A stretch of 38,535 nt of DNA. It comes from a virus. Taxonomy: Duplodnaviria; Heunggongvirae; Uroviricota; Caudoviricetes. A program made the translations under genes and the position numbers. Positions 5,528-29,862 of this stretch are shown here, in pieces. Positions within the stretch are counted from its first letter, which is position 1. The number at the start of each line of letters is the position of its first letter. The stretch lies in the IMG/VR virus record IMGVR_UViG_2874968258_000008. One strand, given 5' to 3'. Under the pieces are notes generated by a model that did not search any database, was not told the DNA's origin, and saw nothing but the letters and a program-made list of their open reading frames with translations.

Positions 5528-5581
5528 TAAGTAATATGCAGGCGGCGCAGTGCGTCGCCTCTGACTGAAAGGAGTTTCCTG

Positions 5582-5947
5582 ATGAAAGAGACGAAAAACA
5601 TCGATACCGAAAACACGGTCGTTGCTGACACTGTGAAAGAAACCAGTGAGCGTGGCGTAAAACTTACCCAACCAATTGAGCGAGGCGGCGAAAAAATCAC
5701 GTATGTGGAGATCACCGGGGCTATTGAGCAGGCTGGATCTCTGCGAGATTTGTCGCTGTCTGATGTGCTGAATTTGAAAGCGGAATCCATGTTTACGCTG
5801 CTGTCACGCGTGACATCACCGCGACTGGATGAAGTGACGATCAAAAAAATGGCATCCCGTGACTTTATTCAGTTATGTGTGGTTGCCGTAAATTTTTTGA
5901 GCGGTGCGGACTCTGGCGAGAAGAACGAACAGGCGACGGAAGCCTGA
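5582..5947 (+). CDS. E: Tail assembly chaperone gpE
   Basis: 121-aa ORF between FII and the tape measure gene, position and size as P2 E. Confidence 0.8.
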   Translation: MKETKNIDTENTVVADTVKETSERGVKLTQPIERGGEKITYVEITGAIEQAGSLRDLSLSDVLNLKAESMFTLLSRVTSPRLDEVTIKKMASRDFIQLCVVAVNFLSGADSGEKNEQATEA

Positions 5948-6111
5948 TCACGGTTGTGTGCTTTGAGCACATAGAAGACTTTGTGGCGGATATTGCCGCC
6001 ATTTTTAACTGGTCGCCCGCCGAAATCTTCATGATGACGCCCGGCGAAGTGGTTAGCTGGCGTGAGCGGGCGGCACTTCGCAGCGGGAATGCAGACAATG
6101 AAGACTCTTGA
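5582..6111 (+). CDS. gpE+E' frameshift fusion (programmed -1 ribosomal frameshift)
   Basis: Slippery heptamer T_TTT_TTG at 5893-5899 in E frame; -1 frame continues open to TGA at 6109-6111 (ORF 5875..6111) overlapping the start of T, as for P2 E/E' and lambda G/GT. Confidence 0.55.
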
Positions 6112-8905
6112 TATCCGGGTCGCTTTCAGCGCCGTTGACAGGCTGACCCGGCCTGCCGAAAACGCCCGCCGCCTGATGGGGCAGTTTGGTGACTCCATCC
6201 AGCGAACGCAGGGGGCGATCAAAAATCTCGAGCGTCAGGCGCGTTCATTTGAGCGCGCCCGTGACGCTGTCAGTAAAGCGGATGCGGGCATCGTGAAAGC
6301 ACGACGCCAGCTTAACGCCCTTAATCAGTTACAACGCACGGGTACAGTGCTCAGCGAAAAACAACAAAAGCTGATGCAGCAGTTAAGCACCCGGCTTGAA
6401 CGCCTGAATGAATCGCGCACACGGGAAATTCAGAAAATGCGGGAACTTGGCGGAGAGCTGAAACGCCACGGCATTTCCCTGACAGGCAGCGATAACACCA
6501 TCCAGCAGGCCATCAGACGCACCGGACAATACAACAACCAGCTTGAACGCGAACGGCGGGCGCTTGCGCGTGTAACGCAGGCGCGTGAGCGGTATTCACG
6601 CGCGCAGGAAACAGCGGGAAAACTGAAAACAGGTGGTGCGCTGGCAACAGGTGCGGCGGCAGCGGGCGGCTATGCTGCCGGGCGTTTTTTGCAGCCCGCT
6701 ATCGGGTTCGGGAAAGAGATGTCCCGTGTTCAGGCACTGACGCGAATCGATAAAAACAGCCCGCAGTTTAAGGCGCTGCGTGAGCAGGCGTTAAAACTTG
6801 GCTCTGAAACGCAGTTCACCGCAGGCGATGCCGCCAGTGGACAGGCATTTCTTGCAATGGCTGGTTTCACACCGCAGGCCATTCAGGCTGCGCTTCCCGG
6901 CGTGCTGAGCATGGCAACGGCTGGCGGTATGGACCTCGGCGAGACGGCGGATATTGGTTCCAATATCCTGACGCAGTTCGGCCTCTCTGCTGACCAGATG
7001 GACCGGGTCGGTGACACACTTACCGCAGCGTTTACCCGTACCAACACTGACCTTCGCGCACTGGGCGAAACCATGAAATATGCAGGTCCGGTGGCGGGTA
7101 AGCTGGGAATATCGCTGGAGCAGGCCGCAGCGATGGCGGGCGTGCTGGCGAAGATGGGTATCAGGGGGAGTGATGCAGGTACAGCGTTGCGTAAAAGCCT
7201 GGCCAATCTGTCATCACCGCCAAAGGCAGCGGCAGAAGCACTGAAAGAGCTGGGGGTGTCAGTTGCTGACGCCAAAGGCAAAATGCGCCCGATGGAGAAT
7301 GTGCTGGCCGATCTCTATAAAGCCACCCGCAAATACGGGGAGGTTGACCGGGTATCGTTCTTTAAGGACATTGCCGGAGAAGAGGCTTTCACATCATTTA
7401 TGGGCCTCGTTGATGCGGCAGGTGACGGCTTCTTAGCCAAACTGAGAAAAGAACTTGAAGGCGCGCGCGGTGAGGCAGAACGCACGGCAAAGGTTATGGC
7501 CAATAACCTTGATGGCAACCTGAAATCACTCGGCAGTGCATGGGAAGGTCTGCGTATTCGCATCAGTGATCTGGTTGACGGTCCGCTGCGTTCTGTCACG
7601 CAGTGGCTCACGCGGGTTGTCTCAAAGGTGACGGCGCTGGCGCAGGCCCACCCGGCACTGACGCGCCAGTTACTGATAGCGGGAGGCGCACTGCTGGCGA
7701 CAACAGCAACGGTTGGTTCGTTGTCTCTGGTTATTGGGGTGCTTCACGGGAAGCTGGCTACGTTGCGTCTCGGTTTTTCTCTCCTGACCGAATCAATGAA
7801 TGTTGTCAGGGTTCTGCCTGCATTATGGGGAATGGTGACGGGTTCCGTTTCTTTACTTGGTGGCGCTATCGGGGCGCTGTTCAGTCCGGTTAGTCTTATC
7901 GTGGCTGCGCTTGCCGGAGCTGCCGTTCTTATCTGGAAATACTGGGATCCCATCAGGGCATTTTTTGCCGGGGTGTTCAGCGGGATTATGGAAAGGCTGA
8001 CCCCGTTGCGCGAAACCTTTGAACGGTTTGGCCCTGTTTTTGATGTCGTGCGCGATGGGATTATTCAGGTCTTTAACTGGTTTAAATCGCTGCTGTCACC
8101 GATGGAGTCCAGCAAGGAAACGCTGGATAAATGTGCCAGTGCTGGCGAGATATTCGGTAACGTTCTTGGCGGTGCGTTACAACTTGTTCTGACACCTGCA
8201 AAAATGCTACTGGATACGCTGGCGTGGATACTTGAAAAACTTGGCGTCCTTCCGGATGAAGCGGAAAGGGCGCGCAAGAAAATCGAAGACGCACAGCGTG
8301 CGGCCATTCTTCAGGACAAGGTTGCCTTGCTTCAGGGGAACCTGGCGAAAATCAATCCGCCGAAGCCTGTGGAAAATGGCAATGGCACCGGAGGTGATAA
8401 ACCCAAAGACAACAAACCGCTCACAGACAGCAATACCGGGACGCTACGCAGACTCAGCAAAATTGCTGATAACACAGGTAAGCTGGTTGATGAGACGAAA
8501 AAACGCATTGGCCCCGGCGATATTGTCTTTAAGAACCTGCCCCGCGCACTTGCTGTTCGTGGGGAGTGGCAGGAGCGGAAGATTGCGCAGGTCAGTAAGC
8601 CTGCCCCCGCAATTAATATCACACCCGTGGTCCCGGCTCCGCTGCCTCCGGCGCTGGTCCCTGTTGTTGCGGCCAGCTCCCGCCCGGTGGCGGAGGCCAT
8701 ACGCTCTCCAGTGGCATCAGTTCCTGTAACTTCCCGTAACCGGGAGCCTGTTGCCTCCGGATTTGGTGGTGAAATTCATGTTCATCTGCATAACGTTGTT
8801 ACGCAGAATCCCCGCGAACTGGCGAAACTGGTCGGTGAAATGGTCAGGGCAGAAATGGAACGGCGCGCCCGTGCCGGGCGTGGCAGTTTTTACGATAAAG
8901 ATTGA
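6089..8905 (+). CDS. T: Tail tape measure protein gpT
   Basis: About 940-aa ORF, Ala/Gly-rich with central hydrophobic segments, follows E/E'; start could be ATG 6089 or 6098 (ORF track opens at 6062). Confidence 0.85.
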   Translation: MQTMKTLDIRVAFSAVDRLTRPAENARRLMGQFGDSIQRTQGAIKNLERQARSFERARDAVSKADAGIVKARRQLNALNQLQRTGTVLSEKQQKLMQQLSTRLERLNESRTREIQKMRELGGELKRHGISLTGSDNTIQQAIRRTGQYNNQLERERRALARVTQARERYSRAQETAGKLKTGGALATGAAAAGGYAAGRFLQPAIGFGKEMSRVQALTRIDKNSPQFKALREQALKLGSETQFTAGDAASGQAFLAMAGFTPQAIQAALPGVLSMATAGGMDLGETADIGSNILTQFGLSADQMDRVGDTLTAAFTRTNTDLRALGETMKYAGPVAGKLGISLEQAAAMAGVLAKMGIRGSDAGTALRKSLANLSSPPKAAAEALKELGVSVADAKGKMRPMENVLADLYKATRKYGEVDRVSFFKDIAGEEAFTSFMGLVDAAGDGFLAKLRKELEGARGEAERTAKVMANNLDGNLKSLGSAWEGLRIRISDLVDGPLRSVTQWLTRVVSKVTALAQAHPALTRQLLIAGGALLATTATVGSLSLVIGVLHGKLATLRLGFSLLTESMNVVRVLPALWGMVTGSVSLLGGAIGALFSPVSLIVAALAGAAVLIWKYWDPIRAFFAGVFSGIMERLTPLRETFERFGPVFDVVRDGIIQVFNWFKSLLSPMESSKETLDKCASAGEIFGNVLGGALQLVLTPAKMLLDTLAWILEKLGVLPDEAERARKKIEDAQRAAILQDKVALLQGNLAKINPPKPVENGNGTGGDKPKDNKPLTDSNTGTLRRLSKIADNTGKLVDETKKRIGPGDIVFKNLPRALAVRGEWQERKIAQVSKPAPAINITPVVPAPLPPALVPVVAASSRPVAEAIRSPVASVPVTSRNREPVASGFGGEIHVHLHNVVTQNPRELAKLVGEMVRAEMERRARAGRGSFYDKD

Positions 8906-8911
8906 GGAGTC

Positions 8912-9406
8912 ATGGCCATGATGATGATCTACGGCATGTTTGTTTTTGAGCTGCGTACATTGCCGCATCAGCAGTTACAGCAAAACAAAAGCTGGCGGCA
9001 TGTGAAAAATGAACGCGTTAACCGTTCGGCAAGCTGGCAGTATATCGGTGCAGGTGATGAGCGCATCGTTCTTTCTGGTGTGCTTTATCCTGAAATTACA
9101 GGTGGCGAAGTGTCGCTGTCGCTGCTGACCACGCAGGCGTATACAGGACGACCCTGGCCTCTGATTGATGGCGTCGGGCAGATTTACGGCATGTATGTCC
9201 TGACCGAAACGAATACGACCCGCTCCGAGTTTGATCGCTACGGTAAGGCGAAAAAGATAGAATTTTCACTGACTCTTGAACGCTGTGATGAGGATTTGCG
9301 GGAGCGCCTGCAATCCTCATCGTTCAGCGATATGCTGTCCGGCTTCAAAGATAAGGTAACATCATCCCTTAACAGCGCGGCCAGTTCAGTTAAAGGGTTG
9401 TTCTGA
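8912..9406 (+). CDS. U: Tail protein gpU
   Basis: 164-aa ORF, YGMFVFELRTLPHQ N-terminus similar to P2 U; directly after T. Confidence 0.85.
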   Translation: MAMMMIYGMFVFELRTLPHQQLQQNKSWRHVKNERVNRSASWQYIGAGDERIVLSGVLYPEITGGEVSLSLLTTQAYTGRPWPLIDGVGQIYGMYVLTETNTTRSEFDRYGKAKKIEFSLTLERCDEDLRERLQSSSFSDMLSGFKDKVTSSLNSAASSVKGLF

Positions 9407-9414
9407 TTTAACAC

Positions 9415-9452
9415 AAAAACCGCTAATGGTCAGATTAGCGGTTATTTTGTTT
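9415..9452. terminator. Bidirectional rho-independent terminator between convergent U and invertase genes
   Basis: Hairpin ACCGCTAAT-GGTCAG-ATTAGCGGT flanked by A-run upstream and TATTTTGTTT downstream, so it carries a U-tract on either strand. Confidence 0.5.
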
Positions 9453-10029
9453 CCTGACTCTTCTCTATTGTTCCGATTGATTCTCCTGCGGGGTGGTAAC
9501 GATAAATCGTCGATATACCAATGCCGTAAATTATTGCCAGTTGTTTTCTGTCGTGCCCGTTTTTGATCAGCCTTGCTATTTGCTCATGCTGTTCTTTTGT
9601 CAGCTTCGGTCGACGTCCGCCTGTGCGCCCCCGTGCGCGTGCTGCCGCCAGTCCGGCCAGTGTACGTTCAACAATTAATTCACGTTCCATTTCAGCCAGG
9701 GCACCCATCACGTGGAAGAAAAAACGCCCCATTGGAGAAGATGTATCTATGCTGTCGGTCAGACTGCGAAAATTAATTCCTCGCTCCCGTAGTTCCCCGA
9801 CGAGAGAAATCAGATGTTTCATGCTTCGCCCGAGGCGATCCAGTTTCCAGACAACCAGCGTGTCACCTTTTTGAAGGCGCTTTAAAGCGCGTTTTAATCC
9901 CGGTCGGTCTGTCTTTGTCCCGCTTAATTTATCTTCAAATATTTGTTCACATCCTGCACAAACAAGAGCGTTTCGTTGCAGGTCTGTATTCTGGTCATTT
10001 GTTGATACCCTTACATAGCCAATCAGCAC
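9442..10029 (-). CDS. Serine-recombinase DNA invertase (Gin/Pin/Cin/Hin family)
   Basis: Translation LIGYVRVSTNDQNTDLQRNAL...GDTLVVWKLDRLGRS...GRRPKLT is near-identical to Mu Gin / e14 Pin; GTG start at 10029 with GGGAG RBS preferred over the upstream ATG at 10047 used by the ORF track. Confidence 0.85.
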   Translation of the reverse strand: MLIGYVRVSTNDQNTDLQRNALVCAGCEQIFEDKLSGTKTDRPGLKRALKRLQKGDTLVVWKLDRLGRSMKHLISLVGELRERGINFRSLTDSIDTSSPMGRFFFHVMGALAEMERELIVERTLAGLAAARARGRTGGRRPKLTKEQHEQIARLIKNGHDRKQLAIIYGIGISTIYRYHPAGESIGTIEKSQETK

Positions 10030-10083
10030 GCTGAATCTCCCGTCCAAAAGCGCAAATCATGTCATGCAGGCCGGAAACGGCCA

Positions 10084-10094
10084 TTATCTAAAAC
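10084..10094. repeat. Outer part of the left inversion crossover site (gix-like), separated from the rest by the IS insertion
   Basis: TTATCTAAAAC immediately left of IS copy A; joined to 11362..11376 (minus one copy of the 3-bp duplication) it reconstitutes TTATCTAAAACCTCGGTTTACAGGAA, the inverted partner of the site at 15693..15718. Confidence 0.55.
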
Positions 10095-10158
10095 TGAGGT
10101 AGCCTGAGTTTAACGGACACTCCTTCCTGAAATAGAATGGCATCAGAAGGAGCTAATA

Positions 10159-10461
10159 ATGAGCAGAAAAACCCAACGTTACTCTAAAGAGTTCAAAGCC
10201 GAAGCTGTCAGAACGGTTCTTGAAAATCAACTTTCGATCAGTGAAGGCGCTTCCCGATTATCTCTTCCTGAAGGCACTTTAGGACAATGGGTTACCGCCG
10301 CCAGAAAAGGGCTCGGTACTCCTGGTTCCCGCACGGTGGCTGAACTGGAATCTGAAATTCTGCAACTGCGTAAGGCGTTAAATGAAGCTCGCCTTGAGCG
10401 AGATATATTAAAAAAAGCAACAGCGTATTTTGCACAGGAGTCGCTGAAAAATACGCGTTAA
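10159..10461 (+). CDS. IS3-family transposase OrfA (HTH)
   Basis: 100-aa ORF; slippery A_AAA_AAG at 10418-10425 near its 3' end. Confidence 0.85.
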   Translation: MSRKTQRYSKEFKAEAVRTVLENQLSISEGASRLSLPEGTLGQWVTAARKGLGTPGSRTVAELESEILQLRKALNEARLERDILKKATAYFAQESLKNTR

Positions 10462-10496
10462 TCGAACAATGGCGACAACAATTTCCCATTGAAGCG

Positions 10497-11315
10497 ATGT
10501 GTCAGGTATTTGGTGTATCCAGGAGCGGTTATTACAACTGGGTACAGCATGAACCCTCAGACAGAAAACAAAGTGATGAGCGGCTAAAACTGGAGATTAA
10601 GGTGGCACATATCCGCACTCGCGAAACATATGGAACCCGGCGGCTCCAGACGGAGCTGGCAGAGAATGGCATCATCGTTGGTCGTGACCGACTGGCACGT
10701 CTTCGTAAGGAGCTAAGGCTACGCTGTAAGCAGAAACGCAAGTTCAGAGCGACTACGAACTCGAACCACAATCTGCCAGTTGCGCCAAATCTGCTGAACC
10801 AGACGTTCGCTCCTACAGCACCAAATCAGGTCTGGGTGGCGGACCTGACGTATGTTGCCACACAGGAGGGATGGTTGTACCTCGCTGGCATCAAAGATGT
10901 TTATACGTGCGAAATTGTCGGCTACGCCATGGGAGAGCGCATGACAAAAGAGCTGACAGGTAAAGCCCTGTTTATGGCGCTCAGGAGCCAGCGCCCACCT
11001 GCCGGGCTAATCCACCACTCTGATCGAGGTTCACAGTACTGCGCATACGATTACCGGGTCATACAGGAGCAGTTTGGTCTGAAAACATCAATGTCGCGTA
11101 AAGGTAACTGTTACGACAACGCTCCGATGGAAAGCTTCTGGGGAACGCTGAAAAATGAGAGCCTGAGCCACTATCGTTTTAATAACCGGGATGAAGCCAT
11201 CTCAGTAATACGGGAATACATTGAGATTTTCTACAATCGTCAGCGTCGTCACTCTCGTCTGGGGAATATCTCCCCGGCAGCCTTCAGGGAAAAATATCAT
11301 CAGATGGCTGCTTAA
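10497..11315 (+). CDS. IS3-family transposase OrfB (DDE integrase domain), expressed as OrfAB by -1 frameshift
   Basis: 272-aa ORF in the -1 frame relative to orfA; DDE region HHSDRGSQY...CYDNAPMESFWGTLK. Confidence 0.85.
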   Translation: MCQVFGVSRSGYYNWVQHEPSDRKQSDERLKLEIKVAHIRTRETYGTRRLQTELAENGIIVGRDRLARLRKELRLRCKQKRKFRATTNSNHNLPVAPNLLNQTFAPTAPNQVWVADLTYVATQEGWLYLAGIKDVYTCEIVGYAMGERMTKELTGKALFMALRSQRPPAGLIHHSDRGSQYCAYDYRVIQEQFGLKTSMSRKGNCYDNAPMESFWGTLKNESLSHYRFNNRDEAISVIREYIEIFYNRQRRHSRLGNISPAAFREKYHQMAA

Positions 11316-11358
11316 AAAAAGAACAAATGGTAGTGTCCGCTATTGCCAGTACACCTCA

Positions 11359-11376
11359 AACCTCGGTTTACAGGAA
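11359..11376. repeat. Inner part of the left inversion crossover site (gix-like) including the AAC target duplication
   Basis: AACCTCGGTTTACAGGAA directly right of IS copy A; CCTCGGTTTACAGGAA is the exact inverted copy of TTCCTGTAAACCGAGG in the H gene. Confidence 0.6.
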
Positions 11377-12387
11377 ACGGTAAACAAGGCTGGTAACGCC
11401 GTGCAAAAAAATGGCGATACGTTGTCCGGTGGACTTACTTTTGAAAACGACTCAATCCTTGCCTGGATTCGAAATACTGACTGGGCAAAGATTGGGTTTA
11501 AAAATAATTCGGATGCAGACACCGATTCCTACATGTGGTTTGAAACAGGCAACAACGGCAATGAATATTTCAAATGGAGACACCGCATCATTGGCACCCG
11601 GCCTAAAGACCTGATGAATCTTAAATGGAATGCTTTGTCTGTTCTTGTTGAAGCCCTTTTCAGCAGTGAAGTGAAAATATCGACAGTCAATGCACTGAGG
11701 ATATTTAATTCATCTTTTGGTGCCATTTTTCGTCGTTCTGAAGAATGCCTGCATATCATCCCTACACGAGAGAATGAAGGGGAAAATGGTAATATAGGGC
11801 CACTACGCCCCTTTACGCTTAATCTCAGAACTGGCCGGATAAGCATGGGGCATGGTCTTGATGTTACAGGGGATATATTTGCAAACCGTTTTGCAATTAA
11901 CAGTAGTACCGGCATGTGGATTCATATGCGTGACCAGAATGTTATTTTGGGACGTAATGCGGTATCCACTGATGGTGCTCAGGCTTTGCTCCGTCAGGAC
12001 CATGCCGACCGCAAATTTATGATTGGCGGTCTGGGAAATAAGCAATTTGGCATCTACATGATTAATAACTCAAGGACAGCCAATGGCACCGATGGTCAGG
12101 CGTACATGGATAATAACGGGAACTGGCTTTGCGGCTCGCAAGTTATTCCCGGCAACTATGGCAATTTTGATTCCAGATATGTGAAAGATGTTCGACTTGG
12201 TTCACAGCAATATTATGGAGTGAACAACTGGCAAACATGGAATTTTCAGTGCCCGTCAGGCTATGTACTGACGGGGATTAACGTACAGGATACCGGAAAA
12301 AACTCTGCCGATAATATTGCAGGCGTTCATTACAGGCCAGTGCAAAAGTATATAAATGGCACTTGGTATAATGTGGCGAGTATTTAA
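11359..12387 (+). CDS. Alternative tail-fibre C-terminal cassette (Hv'), silent in this orientation
   Basis: Open frame begins at the crossover site with LGLQETVN, the same junction peptide found in H, and ends ...[11 protein letters not shown] like the H C-terminus (...[11 protein letters not shown]); no start codon of its own; the ORF-track start at 11221 lies inside the IS. Confidence 0.7.
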
Positions 12388-12388
12388 T

Positions 12389-12916
12389 ATGATGCACTTA
12401 AAGAACATAAAAGCAGGTAATGCTAAAACAGTGGAGCAGTATGAGTTAACAAAGAAGCACGGAGTCATCTGGCTTTACTCTGAGGACGGAAAAAACTGGT
12501 ATGAGGAAGTGAAGAACTTTCAGCCAGACACAATAAAGATTGTTTACGATGCAAATAATATTATTGTCGCCATCACCAAAGATGCCTCCACGCTTAACCC
12601 TGAAGGTTATAGCGTCGTTGAGGTTCCTGATATTACAGCTAATCGTCGTGCTGATGATTCCGGTAAGTGGATGTTTAAGGACGGAGCTGTGGTTAAACGG
12701 ATTTATACGGCTGACGAACAGCAACAACAGGCCGAATCACAAAAGGCCGCATTGCTTTCCGAAGCTGAATCAGTCATCCAGCCGCTGGAACGCGCTGTCA
12801 GGCTGAATATGGCGACGGACGAGGAACGCACACGACTGGAAGCATGGGAACGCTACAGTGTTCTGGTCAGCCGTGTGGATACGGCAAAGCCAGAATGGCC
12901 ACAAAAGCCTGAGTAA
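12389..12916 (+). CDS. Tail fibre assembly chaperone G' (partner of Hv')
   Basis: 175-aa frame from [11 protein letters not shown]; paralog of the G gene at 14332..14745; conserved C-terminus ...[15 protein letters not shown]. Confidence 0.8.
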
Positions 12917-12921
12917 AAATT

Positions 12922-12941
12922 AAGGCCCGATATCGGGCCTT
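12922..12941. terminator. Palindromic hairpin between convergent G' and G 3' ends
   Basis: Perfect palindrome AAGGCCCGATATCGGGCCTT flanked by A/T runs. Confidence 0.45.
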
Positions 12942-12944
12942 GTT

Positions 12945-13075
12945 TCATTCTGGTTGTTCGGGAAACGTTACTGGCAGGCTGGAGGTGTCTGTGGATTCGA
13001 CCTTCTGCGCATAGAGCATCCACTCGGTTAATTTTTGTTTATTCTCGTCGGAAATAATGCCCAGCCGTAGCTGTG
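12945..13075 (-). pseudogene. G: 3' fragment of tail fibre assembly gene G, cut off by IS copy B
   Basis: Minus-strand frame continuous with G across the IS (after removing IS plus one GTG duplication) translates QLRLGIISDENKQKLTEWMLYAQKVESTDTSSLPVTFPEQPE then TGA at 12947-12945, a typical Tfa C-terminus. Confidence 0.6.
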
Positions 13076-13118
13076 TGAGGTGTACTGGCAATAGCGGACA
13101 CTACCATTTGTTCTTTTT

Positions 13119-13937
13119 TTAAGCAGCCATCTGATGATATTTTTCCCTGAAGGCTGCCGGGGAGATATTCCCCAGACGAGAGTGACGACGCTGACGATTG
13201 TAGAAAATCTCAATGTATTCCCGTATTACTGAGATGGCTTCATCCCGGTTATTAAAACGATAGTGGCTCAGGCTCTCATTTTTCAGCGTTCCCCAGAAGC
13301 TTTCCATCGGAGCGTTGTCGTAACAGTTACCTTTACGCGACATTGATGTTTTCAGACCAAACTGCTCCTGTATGACCCGGTAATCGTATGCGCAGTACTG
13401 TGAACCTCGATCAGAGTGGTGGATTAGCCCGGCAGGTGGGCGCTGGCTCCTGAGCGCCATAAACAGGGCTTTACCTGTCAGCTCTTTTGTCATGCGCTCT
13501 CCCATGGCGTAGCCGACAATTTCGCACGTATAAACATCTTTGATGCCAGCGAGGTACAACCATCCCTCCTGTGTGGCAACATACGTCAGGTCCGCCACCC
13601 AGACCTGATTTGGTGCTGTAGGAGCGAACGTCTGGTTCAGCAGATTTGGCGCAACTGGCAGATTGTGGTTCGAGTTCGTAGTCGCTCTGAACTTGCGTTT
13701 CTGCTTACAGCGTAGCCTTAGCTCCTTACGAAGACGTGCCAGTCGGTCACGACCAACGATGATGCCATTCTCTGCCAGCTCCGTCTGGAGCCGCCGGGTT
13801 CCATATGTTTCGCGAGTGCGGATATGTGCCACCTTAATCTCCAGTTTTAGCCGCTCATCACTTTGTTTTCTGTCTGAGGGTTCATGCTGTACCCAGTTGT
13901 AATAACCGCTCCTGGATACACCAAATACCTGACACAT
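13119..13937 (-). CDS. IS3-family transposase OrfB (copy B)
   Basis: 272-aa ORF identical in translation to 10497..11315. Confidence 0.85.
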   Translation of the reverse strand: MCQVFGVSRSGYYNWVQHEPSDRKQSDERLKLEIKVAHIRTRETYGTRRLQTELAENGIIVGRDRLARLRKELRLRCKQKRKFRATTNSNHNLPVAPNLLNQTFAPTAPNQVWVADLTYVATQEGWLYLAGIKDVYTCEIVGYAMGERMTKELTGKALFMALRSQRPPAGLIHHSDRGSQYCAYDYRVIQEQFGLKTSMSRKGNCYDNAPMESFWGTLKNESLSHYRFNNRDEAISVIREYIEIFYNRQRRHSRLGNISPAAFREKYHQMAA

Positions 13938-13972
13938 CGCTTCAATGGGAAATTGTTGTCGCCATTGTTCGA

Positions 13973-14275
13973 TTAACGCGTATTTTTCAGCGACTCCTGT
14001 GCAAAATACGCTGTTGCTTTTTTTAATATATCTCGCTCAAGGCGAGCTTCATTTAACGCCTTACGCAGTTGCAGAATTTCAGATTCCAGTTCAGCCACCG
14101 TGCGGGAACCAGGAGTACCGAGCCCTTTTCTGGCGGCGGTAACCCATTGTCCTAAAGTGCCTTCAGGAAGAGATAATCGGGAAGCGCCTTCACTGATCGA
14201 AAGTTGATTTTCAAGAACCGTTCTGACAGCTTCGGCTTTGAACTCTTTAGAGTAACGTTGGGTTTTTCTGCTCAT
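13973..14275 (-). CDS. IS3-family transposase OrfA (copy B)
   Basis: 100-aa ORF identical in translation to 10159..10461. Confidence 0.85.
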   Translation of the reverse strand: MSRKTQRYSKEFKAEAVRTVLENQLSISEGASRLSLPEGTLGQWVTAARKGLGTPGSRTVAELESEILQLRKALNEARLERDILKKATAYFAQESLKNTR

Positions 14276-14331
14276 TATTAGCTCCTTCTGATGCCATTCT
14301 ATTTCAGGAAGGAGTGTCCGTTAAACTCAGG

Positions 14332-14745
14332 CTACCTCAGTGAGTCCCATAGCTGGGTTTTATCCCTGACGAGCTGTAGCAGGCTTTGCTTTTCATTTTC
14401 CGCTTGTTGCCTCTGCTCTTCCCCGGTATAAGTTCGCTTTATCACTACGCCATCTTTGAACATCCATTTACCTGAAATATCAGCCCGGCGATTTGCTGTA
14501 ATATCAGGAACCTCAACGACGCTTGCGCCTTCCGGATTAATTGCTGAAACATCCTTTTCAATACAAATAATAACGCCGTTGTGGTCATAGACCATTTTCA
14601 ACGTATCAGGCTGAAAGTTCTTTTGTTCCTCATACCAGTTTTTCCCATCCTCTGTATAAAGCCATTTGATGTTAAATTGTTTCGTTAGCTGGTATTGCTC
14701 TTTTGTTTCAGGATTACCAGCAGAAATGTTTTTTAAGTGCATCAT
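14332..14745 (-). pseudogene. G: Tail fibre assembly gene G, 5' portion, truncated by IS copy B
   Basis: 137-aa ORF whose last two codons and stop lie in the IS terminus; about 40 aa shorter than paralog G' and missing the conserved C-terminus found at 12945..13075. Confidence 0.7.
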
Positions 14746-14747
14746 CG

Positions 14748-16718
14748 TTAAATACTCCCCGCGTTATACCACGTCCCATTAATGCAATACTGAATTGGCC
14801 TTGCCTGAGTTGTATCAATTAGTTCATCTCTGTTTGAGTTAACGGAACCGGTAACAACATAACCTGACCTGTCAGACCATCCGGGACCATTCCATGTCTG
14901 AACAGATAACAGACCACCAAGGCGAATACCTGTAATAAACCTTGAGTTACATTCTGCCTGCGTATATGCACCAACATCTCCCGCAGAGGGTTTGCGGGTT
15001 GTGGTGTAAAACTCTGACCAGTCAGCTTCAAAGCCATAACCATCACGCGCTGAACGATAAAAAATACCGCCGTTCCTGTAATTCACGCGGAACTGTACAG
15101 CAGGGCAGCTCCCCGTATTCATATTGAAGTGGAGGATTAATGTCGATGCGCCACCAATGTTTGCGTTATAGACCCCGCTATTCCAGTTCCAGCCAACAGC
15201 TTTATCATTTCCGACAGTGCTTCCTGTTTGCCCTAAAGCAAATGCAGGTTGTTGATTTTTCGTGTTGTAGTCTCGTCGCCAGCCAGGAGCGTAAGCATCA
15301 CCATGATTAATATAAGTGAATTGAGCGTTAGTAATTCCGCCACCGCTGGACGTGCTCGGCGTGGTAACGCGTATGGTCATTGCGCCGCGAGTGCCAATAA
15401 CTTCCACCACAGCACCTGCAAGACAAATATTTCCGCAACCTGTATCTGTAATGACCTTATTATTTGCATAAGCCCATGAGCCTTTGCACATCCAGTAAGG
15501 ATGGTTAAATGCTCCCTGACTCTCCAGCCACGAAATAAATTGCGCGGTTGTCCAGACCTGACTATCGCCACCAATATTCAGCCATGAGCTATATGCGCGG
15601 CAGGCACCAATATTTTTGGTGAAGGTATCTTTCCCCGGAATATCTGCGCCGTTCTGGTTTTTCTGTAATGCGCCAGAAGCCTGATTTACCGTTTCCTGTA
15701 AACCGAGGTATTCGATAACGGCGGCAACGGTCGATTTCGCAAGAATATCCCGCCCGACTTTTGTCAGGGTTGCCAGGCTGGCGACATCATTCCCCGTAAA
15801 ATACGGAAACCTGTCTGCCGCAGTAGCAAGCCCCGCCAGCGCCGTCAGAGTGGCATCTTTCGGTTGCTTACCCGCAAGCGCGTTAGTCATGGTGGTCGCA
15901 AAATTCGGGTCGTTGCCCAGCGCCGCCGCCAGCTCGTTCAGTGTGTTCAGTGCATCAGGCGAAGAGTCTACAAGTGCGGCAATCGCAGCCATAACGAAAG
16001 CCGTGCTTGCGATTTGGGTATTATTCGTTCCCTGTCGCGCAGTTGGTGTTGTTGGCGTTCCGGTCAGTGCCGGGCTGTTTAATGGGGCTTTCTTGTTCGT
16101 TTCATCCATTACTGCCTTAACGGCTTTTGGTGTCGCTGCCAGCGTTTCAGACGTGCTGTTGGTGGCGTTGCTGAGCTGGACAAGGCCTTTTGCGGTCAGC
16201 GAGGCGTCCGGGTGACGTCGTGACTGTTCATGCTCTTTCAGTTTGTCATCCACGTAATTCACTGTGGCCATCACCATGGTGTTATCCACGGTAAGCGCCA
16301 CAGTGGCAGTGCTGGATACGGTCAGAATGGTGCGAAATGTTTGTGCACGTCCGGATCCTTCGGCAACGGTTGGCTTGTAACTTTCGGCAGTATTGCCTAC
16401 CGCGATCAAATCGCCGTGCTCATCAAACACACCAATTTCCCGGATCCAGAATCCGCCCGTTTCAGGAGGAATAACCAGCTCCGCAATAATGTGGTTCTGA
16501 TGTGTTGCGTCCAGGGTGACGCGATTAACGGTATGTCGCCACACCTCATGCACAAGACGGGTCTGCTTACTGTCTGGCGTGGGTAAAGTACCGCCGCCGT
16601 CACCCACGGCCATATGTGTCAGGCGGACAGGTTTCCCATCTGGCGCGGTTGCCTGCGCTAATTTTTTTGCACCCGTATCGGTGATAATGGTTTTAAATTT
16701 TCGTGTTGTGGTACTCAT
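14748..16718 (-). CDS. H: Tail fibre protein gpH (constant N-terminal part fused to currently expressed variable part Hv)
   Basis: 656-aa ORF; N-terminus [23 protein letters not shown] typical of P2 H; crossover site lies inside the gene at codons around 337-345. Confidence 0.9.
15693..15718. repeat. Right inversion crossover site (gix/cix-like) inside gene H
   Basis: TTCCTGTAAACCGAGGTATTCGATAA; first 17 nt identical to my recollection of the Mu gix site (TTCCTGTAAACCGAGGTTTTGGATAA), 22 of 26 overall; inverted copy at the start of Hv'. Confidence 0.7.
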
Positions 16719-16720
16719 GC

Positions 16721-17284
16721 TTAATCGTCCGGATAAATGGTAATGACTTCACCGTCGTAAGTTGCTGCTGCCGCGAAAATATCTCCCTGAATCTCCTGAA
16801 TGATATTCAGCCCTGTCATGTGGCGGCTGACCGGGCGGGCATCAGCAATCAACCGCTCCATTTCCAGATACATTTCCTCCGTCACGCCACTGTCCAGCGT
16901 GCCAACATCAATCTTGAATGTTCCGGGTTCGCCGTTGAACTCCCACCACTCAGACACGCGAATGAGGTATCCCAGCGGCTCAATGGCCCGTCGCAGGGCG
17001 CTGATGGTTCCTTTGTGTCGGTGTATCAGCCATGCATCACGAATCACCTGTCGCTTTGTCTCTTCCGGCCAGTTGCGATCCCAGCGGTCAACGGAAAACG
17101 CCCAGGCGAGATAAGGCAGCAGATGCACCGGGCAGGTGTCCGGCGACCACAGCGTGTTGAGGTCTGCCGGAATGTCTGTAATGCGTGTTCCGACGGCTTC
17201 GGCACAACGCATGAAATTGCTGGCTGATGGTGGTAACAGTGAATTACTCATTACGCCCACCTTCGCTGATGGTGAATGACTCAC
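16721..17284 (-). CDS. I: Baseplate assembly protein gpI
   Basis: 187-aa ORF between J and H, P2 order; start may be the internal ATG at 17251. Confidence 0.8.
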   Translation of the reverse strand: MSHSPSAKVGVMSNSLLPPSASNFMRCAEAVGTRITDIPADLNTLWSPDTCPVHLLPYLAWAFSVDRWDRNWPEETKRQVIRDAWLIHRHKGTISALRRAIEPLGYLIRVSEWWEFNGEPGTFKIDVGTLDSGVTEEMYLEMERLIADARPVSRHMTGLNIIQEIQGDIFAAAATYDGEVITIYPDD

Positions 17285-18140
17285 AGCGCGCCGCCTGTAT
17301 GTCGCTGATGGCCATATTCTGTGTGGGTTCGATTATCTCCACGCGTTGCACACCGTGCACATGCAGTGCGGCAGCAATGGCGGACAACGCCACGTCCTGA
17401 CCGATAAGCCCCTGCTCAGCCAGCCACTTCCTGAACGACGATTCAGCCGCAGCCAGAATAGGTTCGGATTCCGGACCGGGGTAAAAGTACAGTTTTGCAT
17501 TCAGCCGCCATGTCACGATTCTGGCACTCTGTACGGTCAGGCGGTCGGCCACCGGGCGGGTATCCTCTGCATTCAGAACGGCGCGAACGGTATTAAGCAA
17601 CGCCTCCGTTGCTGTGCCGTCGCCCTCAGTGGACAGGATGGAAACCGTCACATTTGCCGGAGACGGACTGATGGCCCGCGCATCGCGCACCAGACCGCTG
17701 GTGCTGCGGGCAAAATACTCGTATGCGCCTGACGGGCCTGCAACACTCAGGCCGTCATACGCCCGCTGCGCCCGCAGTCTCAGCGAGGTGTCGTTCTCCA
17801 TCACCACGTCGGTGGTATCCGTTGCCGGAGTGATAACCAGGCGCTTTGTGTTCATATTGCCCGCGAGGTTGTCCAGGTCTGTTCCGGCGCTGTGGCTCAA
17901 CATGCAGGCGCGTGCGGCCTCATTGACCCGCTGGCGTAACAGCATTTCACGAAACGACATGGTTTGAGCGATAACGTTCAGGGGTTCCGATTCCAGTTCC
18001 AGTGCGGCGGAGACGACTTCACGCTGTTCGGCGGGATAAGCTGCAATCATCATGGCCTTTGTGTCAGCCAGAATTGCCTCAAAGTCAGGCTCCGCGATGA
18101 TGGCGGGTTCCGGTAACTGGGAAAGGTCAACGGCAGGCAT
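17244..18140 (-). CDS. J: Baseplate assembly protein gpJ
   Basis: 298-aa ORF, position and size as P2 J. Confidence 0.85.
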   Translation of the reverse strand: MPAVDLSQLPEPAIIAEPDFEAILADTKAMMIAAYPAEQREVVSAALELESEPLNVIAQTMSFREMLLRQRVNEAARACMLSHSAGTDLDNLAGNMNTKRLVITPATDTTDVVMENDTSLRLRAQRAYDGLSVAGPSGAYEYFARSTSGLVRDARAISPSPANVTVSILSTEGDGTATEALLNTVRAVLNAEDTRPVADRLTVQSARIVTWRLNAKLYFYPGPESEPILAAAESSFRKWLAEQGLIGQDVALSAIAAALHVHGVQRVEIIEPTQNMAISDIQAARCESFTISEGGRNE

Positions 18141-18143
18141 GAT

Positions 18144-18494
18144 TTACTCCCTCAGCGTGATGGTTAATTCAACATTCTGCATGGTCTGCATGACAGTGCC
18201 CGACAGCGTCACCCCGGCGTGGCCTCCTGCCTTCCAGACAACGTCGATGGCGTTCAGGGCAATGCGTGGTTCCCATCGTGTCAGTGCAATCACGGTAGCA
18301 CTCATGCATTGCAGACGCGTGGTGTTATTCATGGGTTCGTCAATCAAATCAGGCACAAGGCTGCCATATTCCCGTCGCATAACCCGGCTTGCCAGCGGGG
18401 TGGTCAGGATGTCCCTGACTGACTGTTTCAGGTGCGCCATATCGTTCAGGTTTCCCGTCCCGTCCGGGTTCATTCCTGTGTAGCGGGTTGTCAC
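18144..18494 (-). CDS. W: Baseplate wedge protein gpW (gp25-like)
   Basis: 116-aa ORF between V and J. Confidence 0.85.
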   Translation of the reverse strand: MTTRYTGMNPDGTGNLNDMAHLKQSVRDILTTPLASRVMRREYGSLVPDLIDEPMNNTTRLQCMSATVIALTRWEPRIALNAIDVVWKAGGHAGVTLSGTVMQTMQNVELTITLRE

Positions 18495-19072
18495 TGCGGG
18501 CCTCCTGTCGAATCGCTGCCACCTTTAACGCCACCGTGCTTATGCGTATGCACTGTGATGCCGTTTGAGGTGAAATCGCCGCCGCTGTGCGTGATATTGC
18601 CGCTCATCGTTCCCCCTTTTGTGACGTCAAGCGTCGCTGTTCTCAGAAGGTCTGTGCATTCCACGACAGGCGTGTTCAGTGTCACGCTGATGGATGCCTG
18701 CAAAGTGGCCGTTTTCATGCCGCTTGCGCTCAGTGCGCCTGCGTCCGCGTCGTAGCGGAACACCGCGCCGTCCGGCGCGCTGACCACGATTTCTTTCAGG
18801 CTTTTGCCGGGTGCCGGAATGGCATCACTCCACAGGCTGCCGATTATCATGGCGGTTTCCGGGTTGCCGCCGATGCAGGCAATTGCCACCTGTTCGCCTG
18901 GTGATGGCGGAAACCACACGTTGAAGTCTCCCGCGCGCGTGGTGTTCCAGCGCAGCCAGCCTGTTTCCAGTTCGCCGCTGCGAACGCGCACGCACCAGGA
19001 TTCCTCATCAACTTCAGAGATGATCCCGGTGCGGATGATATTGCTCAGCAGTCGCATGAGTTCTGCGCTCAT
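18491..19072 (-). CDS. V: Baseplate spike/hub protein gpV
   Basis: 193-aa ORF, Gly/Ser/Thr-rich C-terminus, P2 position. Confidence 0.85.
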   Translation of the reverse strand: MSAELMRLLSNIIRTGIISEVDEESWCVRVRSGELETGWLRWNTTRAGDFNVWFPPSPGEQVAIACIGGNPETAMIIGSLWSDAIPAPGKSLKEIVVSAPDGAVFRYDADAGALSASGMKTATLQASISVTLNTPVVECTDLLRTATLDVTKGGTMSGNITHSGGDFTSNGITVHTHKHGGVKGGSDSTGGPQ

Positions 19073-19704
19073 CGTACAGCCTCCGCAATCCGGCCCAGCA
19101 CCGTGTTATAAATCAGGCGCTCATCTGCCTGGCTGATACCCAGCAGCTCACGTACCGGGTAATCGGTGAAAATGCCCGGCGCAACCTGATCGCGCTCACC
19201 GAACTGATGAACGCGTGCAATACGTGCGGCCACGCCGCTGTAACCCACCGTCACACCGGAAGCATCTGCACGGGCTTTCAGGTAGCGGGCGGTGCGCAGT
19301 TTTACGAACATGGAGACGCGCCTGGTGCTGTCCTGGTTGATGCGCCGGGTGCGTATTTCCAGAAAACGGTCGATGTCATCCCGGTAAAACGTGCGGATAT
19401 TGTTTTTATCCTCATCCCACCCGGTGATGGTTCGCCCGTATTTCCCCGTGTCGTGATGCCAGTTTTTCAGCGTGCGTGCTTCGTTATTCCAGATAAAGCG
19501 AATGCGCTCCTGTATCCGGGTTACGCGGCGTCTGCGTGGTGTCCATGCGGTCCCGTCCGGCGCTTTCTGTGACCGGATACGCGCCTGCTGGGCGCGGCGT
19601 AAATCCTGTGCCAGCTTTCTGGCGATGTTATTAATGGCCTGCTGATTCAGGCTGTCGCGGATAGCCTCAAAGGTTTCATCCACGCGGGTGAATGCCTTAT
19701 CCAT
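19069..19704 (-). CDS. S: Tail completion / virion morphogenesis protein gpS
   Basis: 211-aa ORF between R and V, overlapping both neighbours by a few nt; longer than P2 S (about 150 aa). Confidence 0.7.
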   Translation of the reverse strand: MDKAFTRVDETFEAIRDSLNQQAINNIARKLAQDLRRAQQARIRSQKAPDGTAWTPRRRRVTRIQERIRFIWNNEARTLKNWHHDTGKYGRTITGWDEDKNNIRTFYRDDIDRFLEIRTRRINQDSTRRVSMFVKLRTARYLKARADASGVTVGYSGVAARIARVHQFGERDQVAPGIFTDYPVRELLGISQADERLIYNTVLGRIAEAVR

Positions 19705-20164
19705 CGCTTTCCCCCCACGTCACATCCTGGAATACATGCGACCAGTCGCCTTCGGAAGAGGGCAGGCGGGGTTTTGGCTCCGGCAGGTGTTCTGCCTGCG
19801 GTGTGCCCTGACTGCTGCGCGTGATGCGAACGCGTTCCCGCAGGGGGAGCGTAAACAGGAGATCGGCGCTGTCATCGTCATTGATAACGGCGGAAAATTT
19901 GATGTCCTGATTACGCTCCGGATTGAGCAACAACTGTGGCTGATTTTCGGATAACCACGCCAGCAGCGGCAGCGTGAGGTCGTCCAGCTCTCCGGCGTAA
20001 TCCATGACAAACATCACTATCTGATAGCGGTAAACAAACGATGGGGTTTCTCCGGTCGTTTCAATGTTGCCGCTCTCCACGAAAATGGTGAATTTTTCCG
20101 GGTTGGCATGACACCACCGGCATGAACGGGTCATGGCTTCACGCAGGGAATCAGTTTTCAGCAT
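19697..20164 (-). CDS. R: Tail completion protein gpR
   Basis: 155-aa ORF beginning MLKTDSLREAMT, as P2 R. Confidence 0.8.
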   Translation of the reverse strand: MLKTDSLREAMTRSCRWCHANPEKFTIFVESGNIETTGETPSFVYRYQIVMFVMDYAGELDDLTLPLLAWLSENQPQLLLNPERNQDIKFSAVINDDDSADLLFTLPLRERVRITRSSQGTPQAEHLPEPKPRLPSSEGDWSHVFQDVTWGESDG

Positions 20165-20441
20165 GGTTGTTGTCCTCGTTGTTCAGTCGTTGCAGCCTGC
20201 GCTGTTCCAGTAATTCAATGGCCCGCTTATCGGCGTTACAGGTTTCCAGTGCGTCCATGAGGCTGTCGCTCCATATCCCGATGTTTCCCCATGATGGCGT
20301 CACCGGAAACGGCGGGGGAAGTACGGGGGCGGTCAGCCCTTCCGGGATGAAACGGAACGACGGCGGCGGCGCGGACGCGTTCTGCGTGCTGGTGCAACCG
20401 CTCAGTAAAGCGAGCGTCAGGAACAGCGCGGGCACATGCAT
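20151..20441 (-). CDS. lysC: Outer-membrane spanin lipoprotein (LysC/Rz1-like)
   Basis: Frame from internal ATG 20441 gives signal peptide plus lipobox LLSGC and a proline-rich body; overlaps the 3' end of lysB in another frame. Confidence 0.65.
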   Translation of the reverse strand: MHVPALFLTLALLSGCTSTQNASAPPPSFRFIPEGLTAPVLPPPFPVTPSWGNIGIWSDSLMDALETCNADKRAIELLEQRRLQRLNNEDNNHAEN

Positions 20442-20709
20442 CTGTCGTGATATCGTTGCGTAGCTGTTCACGTCGGATTTCCCCTTCCTGTTGTCGGTTC
20501 TGGCGCGCTGTCATGACGTCACGCAGTACACCGGATGCGGTGCTGATGATGGTGCCGGCCTCTTTCAGGGTCCGGCTGTAATCGTCCAGTTGCGCCTGTG
20601 TATAACGGTTGTGTCCGTCTTCCTGCCCCAGTCTGAATGTCTGCCAGAGTGTTATGGTCAGCAGCGTGAGGACGGTCAGTGCCATCATCAGGATGTAACG
20701 CACTTTCAT
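20236..20709 (-). CDS. lysB: Inner-membrane spanin (LysB/Rz-like)
   Basis: 157-aa ORF with N-terminal TM helix (ILMMALTVLTLLTITLW) followed by charged helical region; start overlaps endolysin stop. Confidence 0.7.
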   Translation of the reverse strand: MKVRYILMMALTVLTLLTITLWQTFRLGQEDGHNRYTQAQLDDYSRTLKEAGTIISTASGVLRDVMTARQNRQQEGEIRREQLRNDITTDACARAVPDARFTERLHQHAERVRAAAVVPFHPGRADRPRTSPAVSGDAIMGKHRDMERQPHGRTGNL

Positions 20710-21254
20710 GACTGGCCTCCGGTGTCACGTAAGCACCATGCACGAAAATCAGTACGACGGTTAACCAGTCCCTGTGAGCGTTCGCCGCCGCTGTTCACGA
20801 AGTCAGTCAGTCTGTTGCACATGTCAGGCCAGTTGTGCGCCTGTGCATGTTTCCAGATAGTGGTGCGGTGGTAGTTACGGTTCTTATCCCTGAACCACAT
20901 AAGATTTCTGCATCCAAGATTAAAGGCGGCATCTGTCATTGCCTCAAACGCGGACTGTGGCATGGCGTTGCCGCTGAAGTTCTGATTTATGCAGTTTTCT
21001 GCATGTTGCATATCATTAACCCAGCGCCCGGCGACTTCCGTTTCGGTGTACAGACGATTTTCCACATGCCCGGTCGAGCCGCACCCCACGGTCATTACCC
21101 CGGCAATATCCCGGTAAGGCGTTGCGCGACAGTCCTCCCATGTGGCAATGCGGATTTGCGCTTCCGGGCTGGTCCGGAGTTTGTGAGGGGCAATGGAGAA
21201 CCCCAGCGCCACAATGGCGGCTACGGCGTAACGTTTAACGGGCAGCTTTATCAT
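20706..21254 (-). CDS. K: Endolysin gpK, lysozyme with N-terminal signal-anchor-release (SAR) segment
   Basis: 182-aa ORF; hydrophobic Gly/Ala-rich N-terminus YAVAAIVALGFSIAP then E-x8-D-x5-T motif (WEDCRATPYRDIAGVMT) of T4/P21-type lysozymes. Confidence 0.8.
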   Translation of the reverse strand: MIKLPVKRYAVAAIVALGFSIAPHKLRTSPEAQIRIATWEDCRATPYRDIAGVMTVGCGSTGHVENRLYTETEVAGRWVNDMQHAENCINQNFSGNAMPQSAFEAMTDAAFNLGCRNLMWFRDKNRNYHRTTIWKHAQAHNWPDMCNRLTDFVNSGGERSQGLVNRRTDFRAWCLRDTGGQS

Positions 21255-21537
21255 GTGTATCGTTATCCCGCAGAATGTTCAGAGCCTGACGCTCACTGTC
21301 GTGAAGTGGCCGTGCGTCTGACTGCGCCAGGATACTGGCGATGAGTTCATTGCGACGCTGCATGGCGGTTTCCATCAGGCGGCGATGTCGCCAGGCATGT
21401 AATGCAGACAGAGAACCGAGTAACAACCCGGCAAGGGCGATTTTTTCACTGATGGTCATCACGCCTATTGTGGTGGCTGTGACTGATGCCCAGAAGGTGA
21501 TCCAGTCACTCACCCGCTGAAAAAAACCTGTTACCAT
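21235..21537 (-). CDS. Y: Holin gpY
   Basis: 100-aa frame from internal ATG 21537 (ORF track extends to 21744); two hydrophobic segments; located between X and K as in P2. Confidence 0.6.
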   Translation of the reverse strand: MVTGFFQRVSDWITFWASVTATTIGVMTISEKIALAGLLLGSLSALHAWRHRRLMETAMQRRNELIASILAQSDARPLHDSERQALNILRDNDTHDKAAR

Positions 21538-21728
21538 AGCTGTATCATCTCTCGTTGTTTTTTCTTCTCCGGCTCCGGCATTTCCACCTCCTGTCCGGCT
21601 TCCAGAAATACCTGTCGGCAGAGTCCGGGGTTGGCATCCAGCACCTTTTCGGTGACGCCCTGCGTCGTGCCGTAGTACCGGAAACAGAGCGAATCCACGG
21701 TGTCGCCTTCCAGTGTCTTCACTTTCAT
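21531..21728 (-). CDS. X: Tail protein gpX (LysM-like)
   Basis: 65-aa frame from MKVKTLEGDTVDSLCFRYYG..LDANPGL, matching P2 X (QGDTLDAICVRYYG..LAANPGL). Confidence 0.8.
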   Translation of the reverse strand: MKVKTLEGDTVDSLCFRYYGTTQGVTEKVLDANPGLCRQVFLEAGQEVEMPEPEKKKQREMIQLW

Positions 21729-22231
21729 CAGCACAACTCCGCAAAGATTCGCGGGCGGCACAGAATGTCAGAGATGGCCCAGCTCACATCGCGCCACAAA
21801 TCCGATGTCTGTATATCCAGTGCGTCCGCCCGGCGGTCGCCCTTGTCCGTTGTGTCCGCATCGCGGTAACGCTCCAGAATCAGGGCGCGTGTGGCGGTAT
21901 AAACAGCATTGCGCCAGTGCCAGAGATTGACGCTTTCTCCGTTAATTACAGGTGCCGGAACATCGGCCAGCGTCTGATGGCCAGCCGCCTGCTGTTCCTG
22001 CTGCCATGCTTCCAGCTCGCGGGTAACGTGTGCCACGGCCCCGGTGGCGGTATGCAGCAGGCGGGAGGTGGTCACGCGGCCCGGCAGTCGTACCGCCAGA
22101 CGCAGCTCGCGCAGCACAATATCCGGCCAGAATGCACCCGCTGAAATACGGGTATCGCCATCTTCGGTGTCGGTGATGTCGTCCTCTGCGGGTCCGGGTT
22201 CAGTTCTGGCAACCATACTCATGGGGTTCAC
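21728..22231 (-). CDS. L: Head completion/stabilisation protein gpL
   Basis: 167-aa ORF between M and X. Confidence 0.75.
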   Translation of the reverse strand: MNPMSMVARTEPGPAEDDITDTEDGDTRISAGAFWPDIVLRELRLAVRLPGRVTTSRLLHTATGAVAHVTRELEAWQQEQQAAGHQTLADVPAPVINGESVNLWHWRNAVYTATRALILERYRDADTTDKGDRRADALDIQTSDLWRDVSWAISDILCRPRIFAELC

Positions 22232-22323
22232 TCCTGAAAAAATCGGGCGGTGGGTGCGCGGTGTAAACGGTCACGGAGCCAAACCGGAACACCGCGCACG
22301 CCGCCCGCTGACGGGGTCAGTCG

Positions 22324-23124: not shown

Positions 23125-23169
23125 TTTTTCTCTCCGTTACAGGCGGGCATGATGCCCGCCGTGAGTTGA

Positions 23170-24222: not shown

Positions 24223-24245
24223 AAAAAATTTGCTCCTTTGTCTTA

Positions 24246-28034: not shown

Positions 28035-28060
28035 CGCGCTTCGCTTGTCTGCTGCTTCGC

Positions 28061-29858: not shown

Positions 29859-29862
29859 TGGT

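Follow-up and report, generated by a model that had tools for sequence, protein, structure and literature searches.

The tail-fibre region of the window (the whole 38,535 nt stretch of DNA that was analysed) contains a fibre gene, H, followed by a tail-fibre assembly (chaperone) gene of the U' type that is split by a copy of IS600 and, converging on this pair, a silent S-type fibre segment and an intact assembly gene of the U type (Table 1). A second copy of IS600 and a gene for a serine DNA invertase lie beyond the silent pair. The C-terminal 325 aa of H were 96.9% identical to Mu S'. The invertase, in which Resolvase (171.6 bits) and C-terminal HTH_7 (50.9 bits) domains were recognized, was 85.6% identical to Mu Gin and, over its full length, 98.5% identical to the invertase of phage P88. 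As judged from sequence similarity, the fibre end of the prophage is homologous to the Mu G segment and is present in the window in the G(-)-like orientation. In an arrangement of this kind a Gin-type serine invertase would flip ~3 kb between two 26-bp sites, and the constant part of H would be joined either to the S'-type end, with U' following, or to the S-type end, with U following. The hosts of Mu in its G(-) state include E. coli C, Citrobacter freundii and Shigella sonnei (PMC4406740).

Table 1. Features of the invertible fibre segment and its surroundings, in order of position in the window
Feature	Position	Strand	Remarks
Gin-family serine DNA invertase (195 aa, GTG start)	9442..10029	-	Uninterrupted ORF
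Outer remnant of the original gixR, cut off by copy A and lying next to the invertase	10084..10094	+	TTATCTAAAAC
IS600 copy A	10095..11358	+	1264 bp; duplication AAC at 10092..10094 and 11359..11361
Hybrid crossover site, IS600 end plus remaining gixR	11351..11376	+	ACACCTCAAACC TC GGTTTACAGGAA
Silent S-type variable fibre segment	11362..12387	+	66.7% identical to the C-terminal part of Mu S; expressed only after inversion
Intact U-type tail-fibre assembly gene (175 aa)	12389..12916	+	Caudo_TAP 128.4 bits; 90.3% identical to Mu U
Hairpin resembling a bidirectional terminator, between the convergent chaperone genes	12921..12942		
Displaced 3' part of the U'-type gene	12945..13075	-	Last 42 codons and stop; from the IS-free reconstruction
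Target-site duplication GTG at copy B, first copy	13073..13075		Direct reading of the sequence
IS600 copy B (IS3 family)	13076..14339	-	1264 bp; same orientation as the fibre operon
Truncated U'-type tail-fibre assembly gene	14332..14745	-	137 aa; from the ORF list
Target-site duplication GTG at copy B, second copy	14340..14342		Direct reading of the sequence
Tail fibre gene H (656 aa)	14748..16718	-	Constant N-terminal part and S'-type variable end; Pfam Phage_tail_fib, Phage_fiber_2
Intact 26-bp crossover site (gixL-like) in H	15693..15718	-	TTATCGAATACC TC GGTTTACAGGAA

The window represents a P88-like (Xuanwuvirus, P2-family) prophage, presumably of S. sonnei. Positions 4332..24745 were 100% identical to CP032523.1, and an 18.5-kb query (window 15710..34200) matched P88, a functional phage, with 96.6% nucleotide identity over 88%. 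A full P2-type set of head, tail, baseplate and replication genes was present and collinear, and all other head, tail, baseplate, replication and packaging genes of P88 had full-length, stop-free counterparts; Ogr, D, the invertase and an integrase were also found in the prophage. From hok to the integrase the element measures ~37.5 kb, including 2.5 kb of IS, which is within the size range of packaged relatives such as phage 520873 (37,583 bp). The FI-FII-E-T-U tail block converges on the fibre operon and was considered as a possible large secondary inversion; this was rejected, as the genes are arranged likewise in P88 and in the IS-free E. coli prophage.

IS600 copies and the interrupted chaperone gene

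The two IS copies are exact reverse complements of 1264 bp each, and both were 100% identical over this length to elements annotated as 'IS3-like element IS600 family transposase' on plasmids of S. sonnei and E. coli. The termini (TGAGGT...ACCTCA) are imperfect inverted repeats of the TG...CA type, with a 3-bp target duplication; orfA (100 aa) carries an HTH_Tnp_1 domain, and orfB (272 aa) carries rve, rve_2 and rve_3 domains and matched NCBIfam transpos_IS3 with 334.7 bits (cut-off 160). Each copy is flanked by its own matching duplication, AAC for copy A and GTG for copy B, and both are therefore taken to be simple transposition events. Inversion through recombination between the two inverted copies had been suspected from repeat arms of 1269 nt that run past the IS ends; it was ruled out by the matching duplication at each copy and by the flipped genomes described below, which are recombined at the gix repeat and not in the IS.

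Copy B has inserted into U' after codon 135, duplicating GTG. The gene starts at position 14745, 2 bp past the stop of H, and its product now consists of 135 native codons (14341..14745) followed by L, R and a TAG stop contributed by the IS end. When the IS and one GTG were removed (13075 joined to 14343), a single 177-aa ORF ending ...QLRLGIISDENKQKLTEWMLYAQKVESTDTSSLPVTFPEQPE was obtained. The reconstructed protein showed 100% identity to the Tfa of Shigella phage SfMu and 97.7% to Mu U', which serves as the chaperone in G(-) phage; it matched Pfam Caudo_TAP with 126.9 bits over profile positions 2-131 of 131, and matched the Mu U structure PDB 5YVQ_B with E = 1.8e-63. A tblastn search of P88 gp41 against the window covered residues 1-135 of 177 in the truncated gene. 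An IS-free allele was found in E. coli FDAARGOS_943 (99.9% identity over 1345 bp); by exact look-up, the 177-aa sequence occurred on 590 contigs and the 137-aa product on 15, the named ones among the latter being only S. sonnei. The identity of the IS, the duplication, the in-frame reconstruction and the IS-free allele cannot be explained by chance.

These results agree with much of the initial annotation of the locus. It had placed an IS copy with a 3-bp GTG duplication within a tail-fibre assembly gene, at borders that were read directly from the sequence here, and had described a 5' part that reads into the IS and stops after 137 aa, as the ORF list also gives. Its statement that the displaced 3' part is in frame once the IS is removed was borne out by the 177-aa reconstruction with its conserved C-terminal module, and the gene that was hit is indeed the chaperone of the expressed orientation, as it follows H and belongs to the U'/S' pair.

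The residues lost are those of a conserved part of the protein. Alignment to Mu U, P2 G and lambda Tfa placed the 42 lost residues (LRLGIISDENKQKLTEWMLYAQKVESTDTSS...P) inside the sole region that lambda Tfa has in common with the Mu and P2 proteins, and ending the product at native residue 135 removes the segment that aligns with a 29-residue stretch of lambda Tfa. The conserved C-terminal helical module is absent from the 137-aa product and present only in the IS-free reconstruction. In the passage of PMC9608196 that deals with these chaperones (after North et al. 2019), the N-terminal domain is described as binding the fibre tip and the conserved C-terminal helical domain as leading to trimerisation and assembly. 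The truncated product would thus retain its fibre-binding domain and lack the last 42 residues of the module that this passage links to fibre trimerisation, and loss of function is likely. The S'-type fibre expressed in the orientation of the window, with its chaperone incomplete, probably does not fold or assemble.

Crossover sites and orientation in related genomes

IS copy A splits the invertase-proximal 26-bp crossover site, after TTATCTAAAAC. The IS-free form of this site, present in the related locus L001, reads TTATCTAAAACC TC GGTTTACAGGAA; the corresponding Mu gix sequence is TTATCCAAAACC TC GGTTTACAGGAA, and the crossover sites of the prophage differ from Mu gix at 1-2 positions. Because IS600 ends in A and AAC was duplicated, the junction created by the insertion reads ACACCTCAAACC TC GGTTTACAGGAA, a hybrid site in which the TC core and the entire right half are kept. 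In its left half, numbered away from the core, the original bases are found at positions 1-6, 8, 9 and 11, and other bases at positions 7, 10, 12 and 13 (4/13); the terminal A of the IS and the duplicated AAC would have rebuilt positions 3-6 beside the unchanged position 2 and core. In a systematic study, the catalytic domain of Gin had requirements at three places only, namely the central dinucleotide, positions 3-2 (a CC-type sequence) and positions 6-4 (A/T), whilst positions 10-7 showed no preference (PMC3616721). Set against these rules, the hybrid appears to keep every catalytic-domain requirement, the loss being confined to some of the outer helix-turn-helix contacts.

Over 326 nt, from the outer crossover-site part to the end of the first 261 nt of the invertase gene, the sequence was 93% identical to the corresponding stretch of Mu (~97% in its coding part). 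In switches of the Gin/Cin/Pin/Hin type the 5' part of the invertase gene contains a recombinational enhancer with Fis sites, and Kahmann and colleagues are said to have placed the Mu enhancer in the 5' part of gin in 1985. Copy A shifts the 5' region of the prophage invertase gene 1267 bp further from the hybrid site. A promoter scan of the interval from IS copy A to the invertase gene found no sigma-70-like promoter.

The orientation of the segment was compared among the S. sonnei contigs returned by the exact look-up of the 137-aa product. Four contigs (CP032523.1, CP044191.1, AKNC01000050.1 and QWSW01000394.1) matched the window, whilst in CP044151.1, AKND01000018.1 and CXEB01000294.1 window positions 11360..15709 were precisely inverted (4350 nt, 100% identical, copy B included). 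By locus, the unflipped state was found in the window, L004, L006, L008 and L011 and the flipped state in L005, L007 and L010; the IS-free L001 also carries the segment in the inverted orientation relative to the window. Both orientations had the same insertion sites and the same duplications, AAC and GTG. In the flipped genomes copy A occupied the same base, with the same AAC, and was joined via the same 32-nt repeat to the S'-type end; the hybrid site is the junction at which these genomes are recombined. Exact look-ups of a 48-aa junction ORF and of a 247-aa fragment returned, respectively, two contigs and mostly IS-free E. coli prophages.

In the flipped genomes the S-type segment is fused to H, and a 678-aa H followed by the intact 175-aa U-type chaperone lies downstream of the late operon. 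This 678-aa protein, encoded in L005, L007 and L001, is identical to H on the E. coli FDAARGOS_943 chromosome in the flipped genomes, and the operon order H, U and terminator-like hairpin is free of lesions. In the state of the window the IS600 copies are inverted repeats that flank the silent S-type/U pair. In the flipped state they are direct repeats that flank the S'-type end and the broken U', a possible route to deletion of the damaged half.

Three SNPs (positions 10062, 17702 and 22527) were available for grouping the genomes, with the IS-free E. coli prophage as outgroup for their polarity. At 17702 and 22527 the derived T was found in the window, L004, L005 and L006, and the ancestral C in L007 and L008. 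Since the flipped L005 groups with the lineage of the window and the flipped L007 with the unflipped L008, at least two inversions would have taken place after both insertions. This estimate is based on the three SNPs and on a single insertion of copy A, an assumption that is reasonable because the site, orientation and duplication are identical.

Two further claims of the initial annotation were not supported. The switch had been described as locked, which is contradicted by the occurrence of both orientations with the same insertions and of flipped genomes in two SNP lineages. It had also been concluded that the prophage probably has no functional fibres and is likely defective, whereas the flipped state has an intact 678-aa fibre and 175-aa chaperone and the other morphogenetic genes of P88 are full length.

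Readings of the locus and comparison with known systems

The explanation that we favour, with a probability of about three in four, is that an IS-broken U' lies in a Mu-like G segment of a P88-like prophage and that the segment still inverts. Of the two states of the host-range switch, one would now probably be fibre-defective and the other would have a wild-type fibre and chaperone. The prophage would then not be permanently fibre-less, the defect being specific to one orientation, and the insertion can be regarded as ordinary IS decay by which one of the two fibre states has probably become non-functional. The prophage may still release particles with a G(+)-like host range, the G(-)-like range being lost; in Mu the latter includes S. 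sonnei (PMC4406740). More tentatively, the IS600/gix hybrid could still be used by a Gin-family invertase in vivo; the host-range switch would thereby have become an on/off switch of fibre competence, and each flip would change the IS600 repeats from inverted to direct or back, opening a deletion route that depends on the state of the segment.

It is very improbable that copy A destroyed the crossover site and froze the segment with a broken chaperone, in a defective prophage that never makes fibres. Copy A does sit in the 26-bp site, where 4/13 left-half positions are replaced, the promoter scan left no promoter-like site upstream of the invertase, and the chaperone is truncated; these points are outweighed by the presence of the same two insertions in both orientations, with flipped genomes in two SNP lineages, by the retention of the core and positions 2-6 in the hybrid, and by the intact invertase ORF. 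Another alternative, which we also consider unlikely, accepts the inversions and attributes them to RecA, acting on the inverted repeat (32 bp perfect; 52 bp at 81%), or to the invertase of another prophage. The crossover point cannot be placed inside 32 identical bases, one half-site has half of its outer positions altered, and the scan that found no promoter for the invertase would also suit such an origin. At 32 bp, however, the repeat is close to the shortest that RecA can use, and at least two events would be needed in a handful of very close genomes; every position read by the Gin catalytic domain survives, and an enzyme acting in trans would still need the same hybrid site.

The consequence of the truncation can also be questioned, as the 135-residue fragment might work, or U or the Tfa of another prophage might substitute for the complete protein. 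The fragment retains the whole N-terminal fibre-binding domain, U and U' share 57% identity overall and are closer in their N-terminal two thirds, the C-terminal module is generic across Tfa families, and copy A points towards the silent S-type segment and U, which makes read-through conceivable. A harmless truncation is nevertheless doubtful, about as much so as inversion by RecA or a foreign enzyme: the module that was cut is the conserved one, found in lambda as well as in Mu, to which the passage cited above assigns trimerisation, and in the orientation of the window U is not downstream of the late promoter.

A broken gene in an invertible cassette, or an IS in a recombination site, should not be read as 'dead' from one genome, because the orientation seen is one of two states. 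Nothing in the sequence of this prophage appears to prove it dead. The hybrid site may be an example from nature that inversion can continue after one half-site has lost some of its outer contacts, and such tolerance would fit the sequence requirements mapped for the Gin catalytic domain (PMC3616721). Insertions of IS600 in Shigella prophage genes are routine, the architecture of the locus is the one known from P88 and from the Mu G segment, and the sequences are public; only two points are mildly unusual, namely that inversion apparently continues with a crossover site split by an IS, and that each flip changes the relation of the two IS copies between inverted and direct repeats. No paper on this insertion came up in the literature searches.

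Phage P88 (Xuanwuvirus, Peduoviridae) has the same gene order as the prophage, and the agreement extends to the convergent FI-U tail block as well as to the invertase with the invertible fibre cassette. It differs in being free of IS600, in having another lysis cassette and another integrase/immunity region, and in lacking the 500-aa PIN-domain ORF found in the window at 836..2338, for which PADLOC and NCBIfam searches gave no matches. The likeness to the Mu G segment extends to the succession of fibre constant part, 26-bp gix, two convergent pairs of variable end and chaperone, second gix and invertase. Unlike in Mu, the segment is located in a P2-family (P88-like) prophage with a P2-type constant part of H, IS600 interrupts U', and the gix next to the invertase is formed in part by an IS600 end.

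SfMu shares with the prophage a Tfa that is 100% identical to the IS-free reconstruction, and its authors likewise raised the question of whether inversion is stopped by damage to a gix site (PMC4406740). SfMu is, in contrast, a transposable Mu-like phage with an intact chaperone, and its gix change is one base beside the core, with no IS insertion. Finally, the insertion resembles IS pseudogenisation as found in Shigella, with a multicopy IS600 that is identical to plasmid copies, a 3-bp duplication and a non-essential prophage gene as target; compared with the usual cases, it is unusual only in that the target lies inside a segment that apparently still inverts.

Orientation of the IS600 copies

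The silent, intact pair of fibre genes (the S-type end and chaperone gene U) is bracketed in the window by the two IS600 copies, which lie there as inverted repeats. In genomes in which the fibre segment is inverted relative to the window (L005, CP044151.1, and L007, AKND01000018.1), the copies are direct repeats and bracket the S′-type end and the broken chaperone gene U′. Homologous recombination between the copies in this flipped state would remove the 1.4-kb stretch carrying the S′-type end and broken U′ together with one IS. Copy B is co-directional with the late fibre operon, and upon prophage induction late transcripts passing through the tail fibre gene H and the truncated chaperone would enter the IS600 transposase genes of this copy in the sense direction.

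Variation at the invertase gene

Within the short remnant separating IS copy A from the gene for the Gin-family invertase, a SNP was found at position 10062, 33 nt upstream of the GTG start codon. T was present only in the window and in CP032523.1, and the remaining S. sonnei loci, the E. coli relative and Mu all carried C; the substitution might affect invertase expression. The invertase of a related prophage (L025, CWST01000056.1, 893..1820) was annotated in pieces of 128 and 60 aa, and that of AKND01000018.1 (L007/L013) was called as 88 aa. Several further genes of AKND01 were also shortened, which suggests draft-sequence frameshifts in this assembly.

Accessory and edge ORFs

Three further ORFs are listed below together with the IS copies and the modules compared with P88. 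The entire 633..2553 stretch, which includes the PIN-domain ORF, was missing from both P88 and the IS-free E. coli relative. This ORF, for which neither PADLOC nor NCBIfam returned a match, is a candidate for a moron gene or for defence cargo. The coiled-coil ORF gave weak PADLOC matches to the coiled-coil regions of LmuB, LeoBC and ZorA (E = 4e-5 to 3e-3), which are probably compositional, and this ORF may lie outside the prophage.

Features of the window
Feature	Position	Strand	Remarks
Hok/Gef-family toxin gene	4..141	-	Left edge of window; 95.7 % identical to P88 hok-like gene
500-aa ORF, N-terminal PIN_4 domain	836..2338	-	Flanked by ogr and tail gene D
IS600 copy A	10095..11358	+	
IS600 copy B	13076..14339	-	
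Lysis cassette	20236..21744		
Immunity/integrase region	35782..37494		
Coiled-coil ORF	37981..38535	+	Past integrase; continues beyond right end of window

Modules differing from P88

The lysis cassette is of the lysozyme type, whereas P88 carries an M15 peptidase. The immunity/integrase region, in which no match to Cox was found, is also of another type than that of P88, its integrase being 43 % identical to the P88 integrase. These differences in both regions show that modules have been exchanged within the genus.
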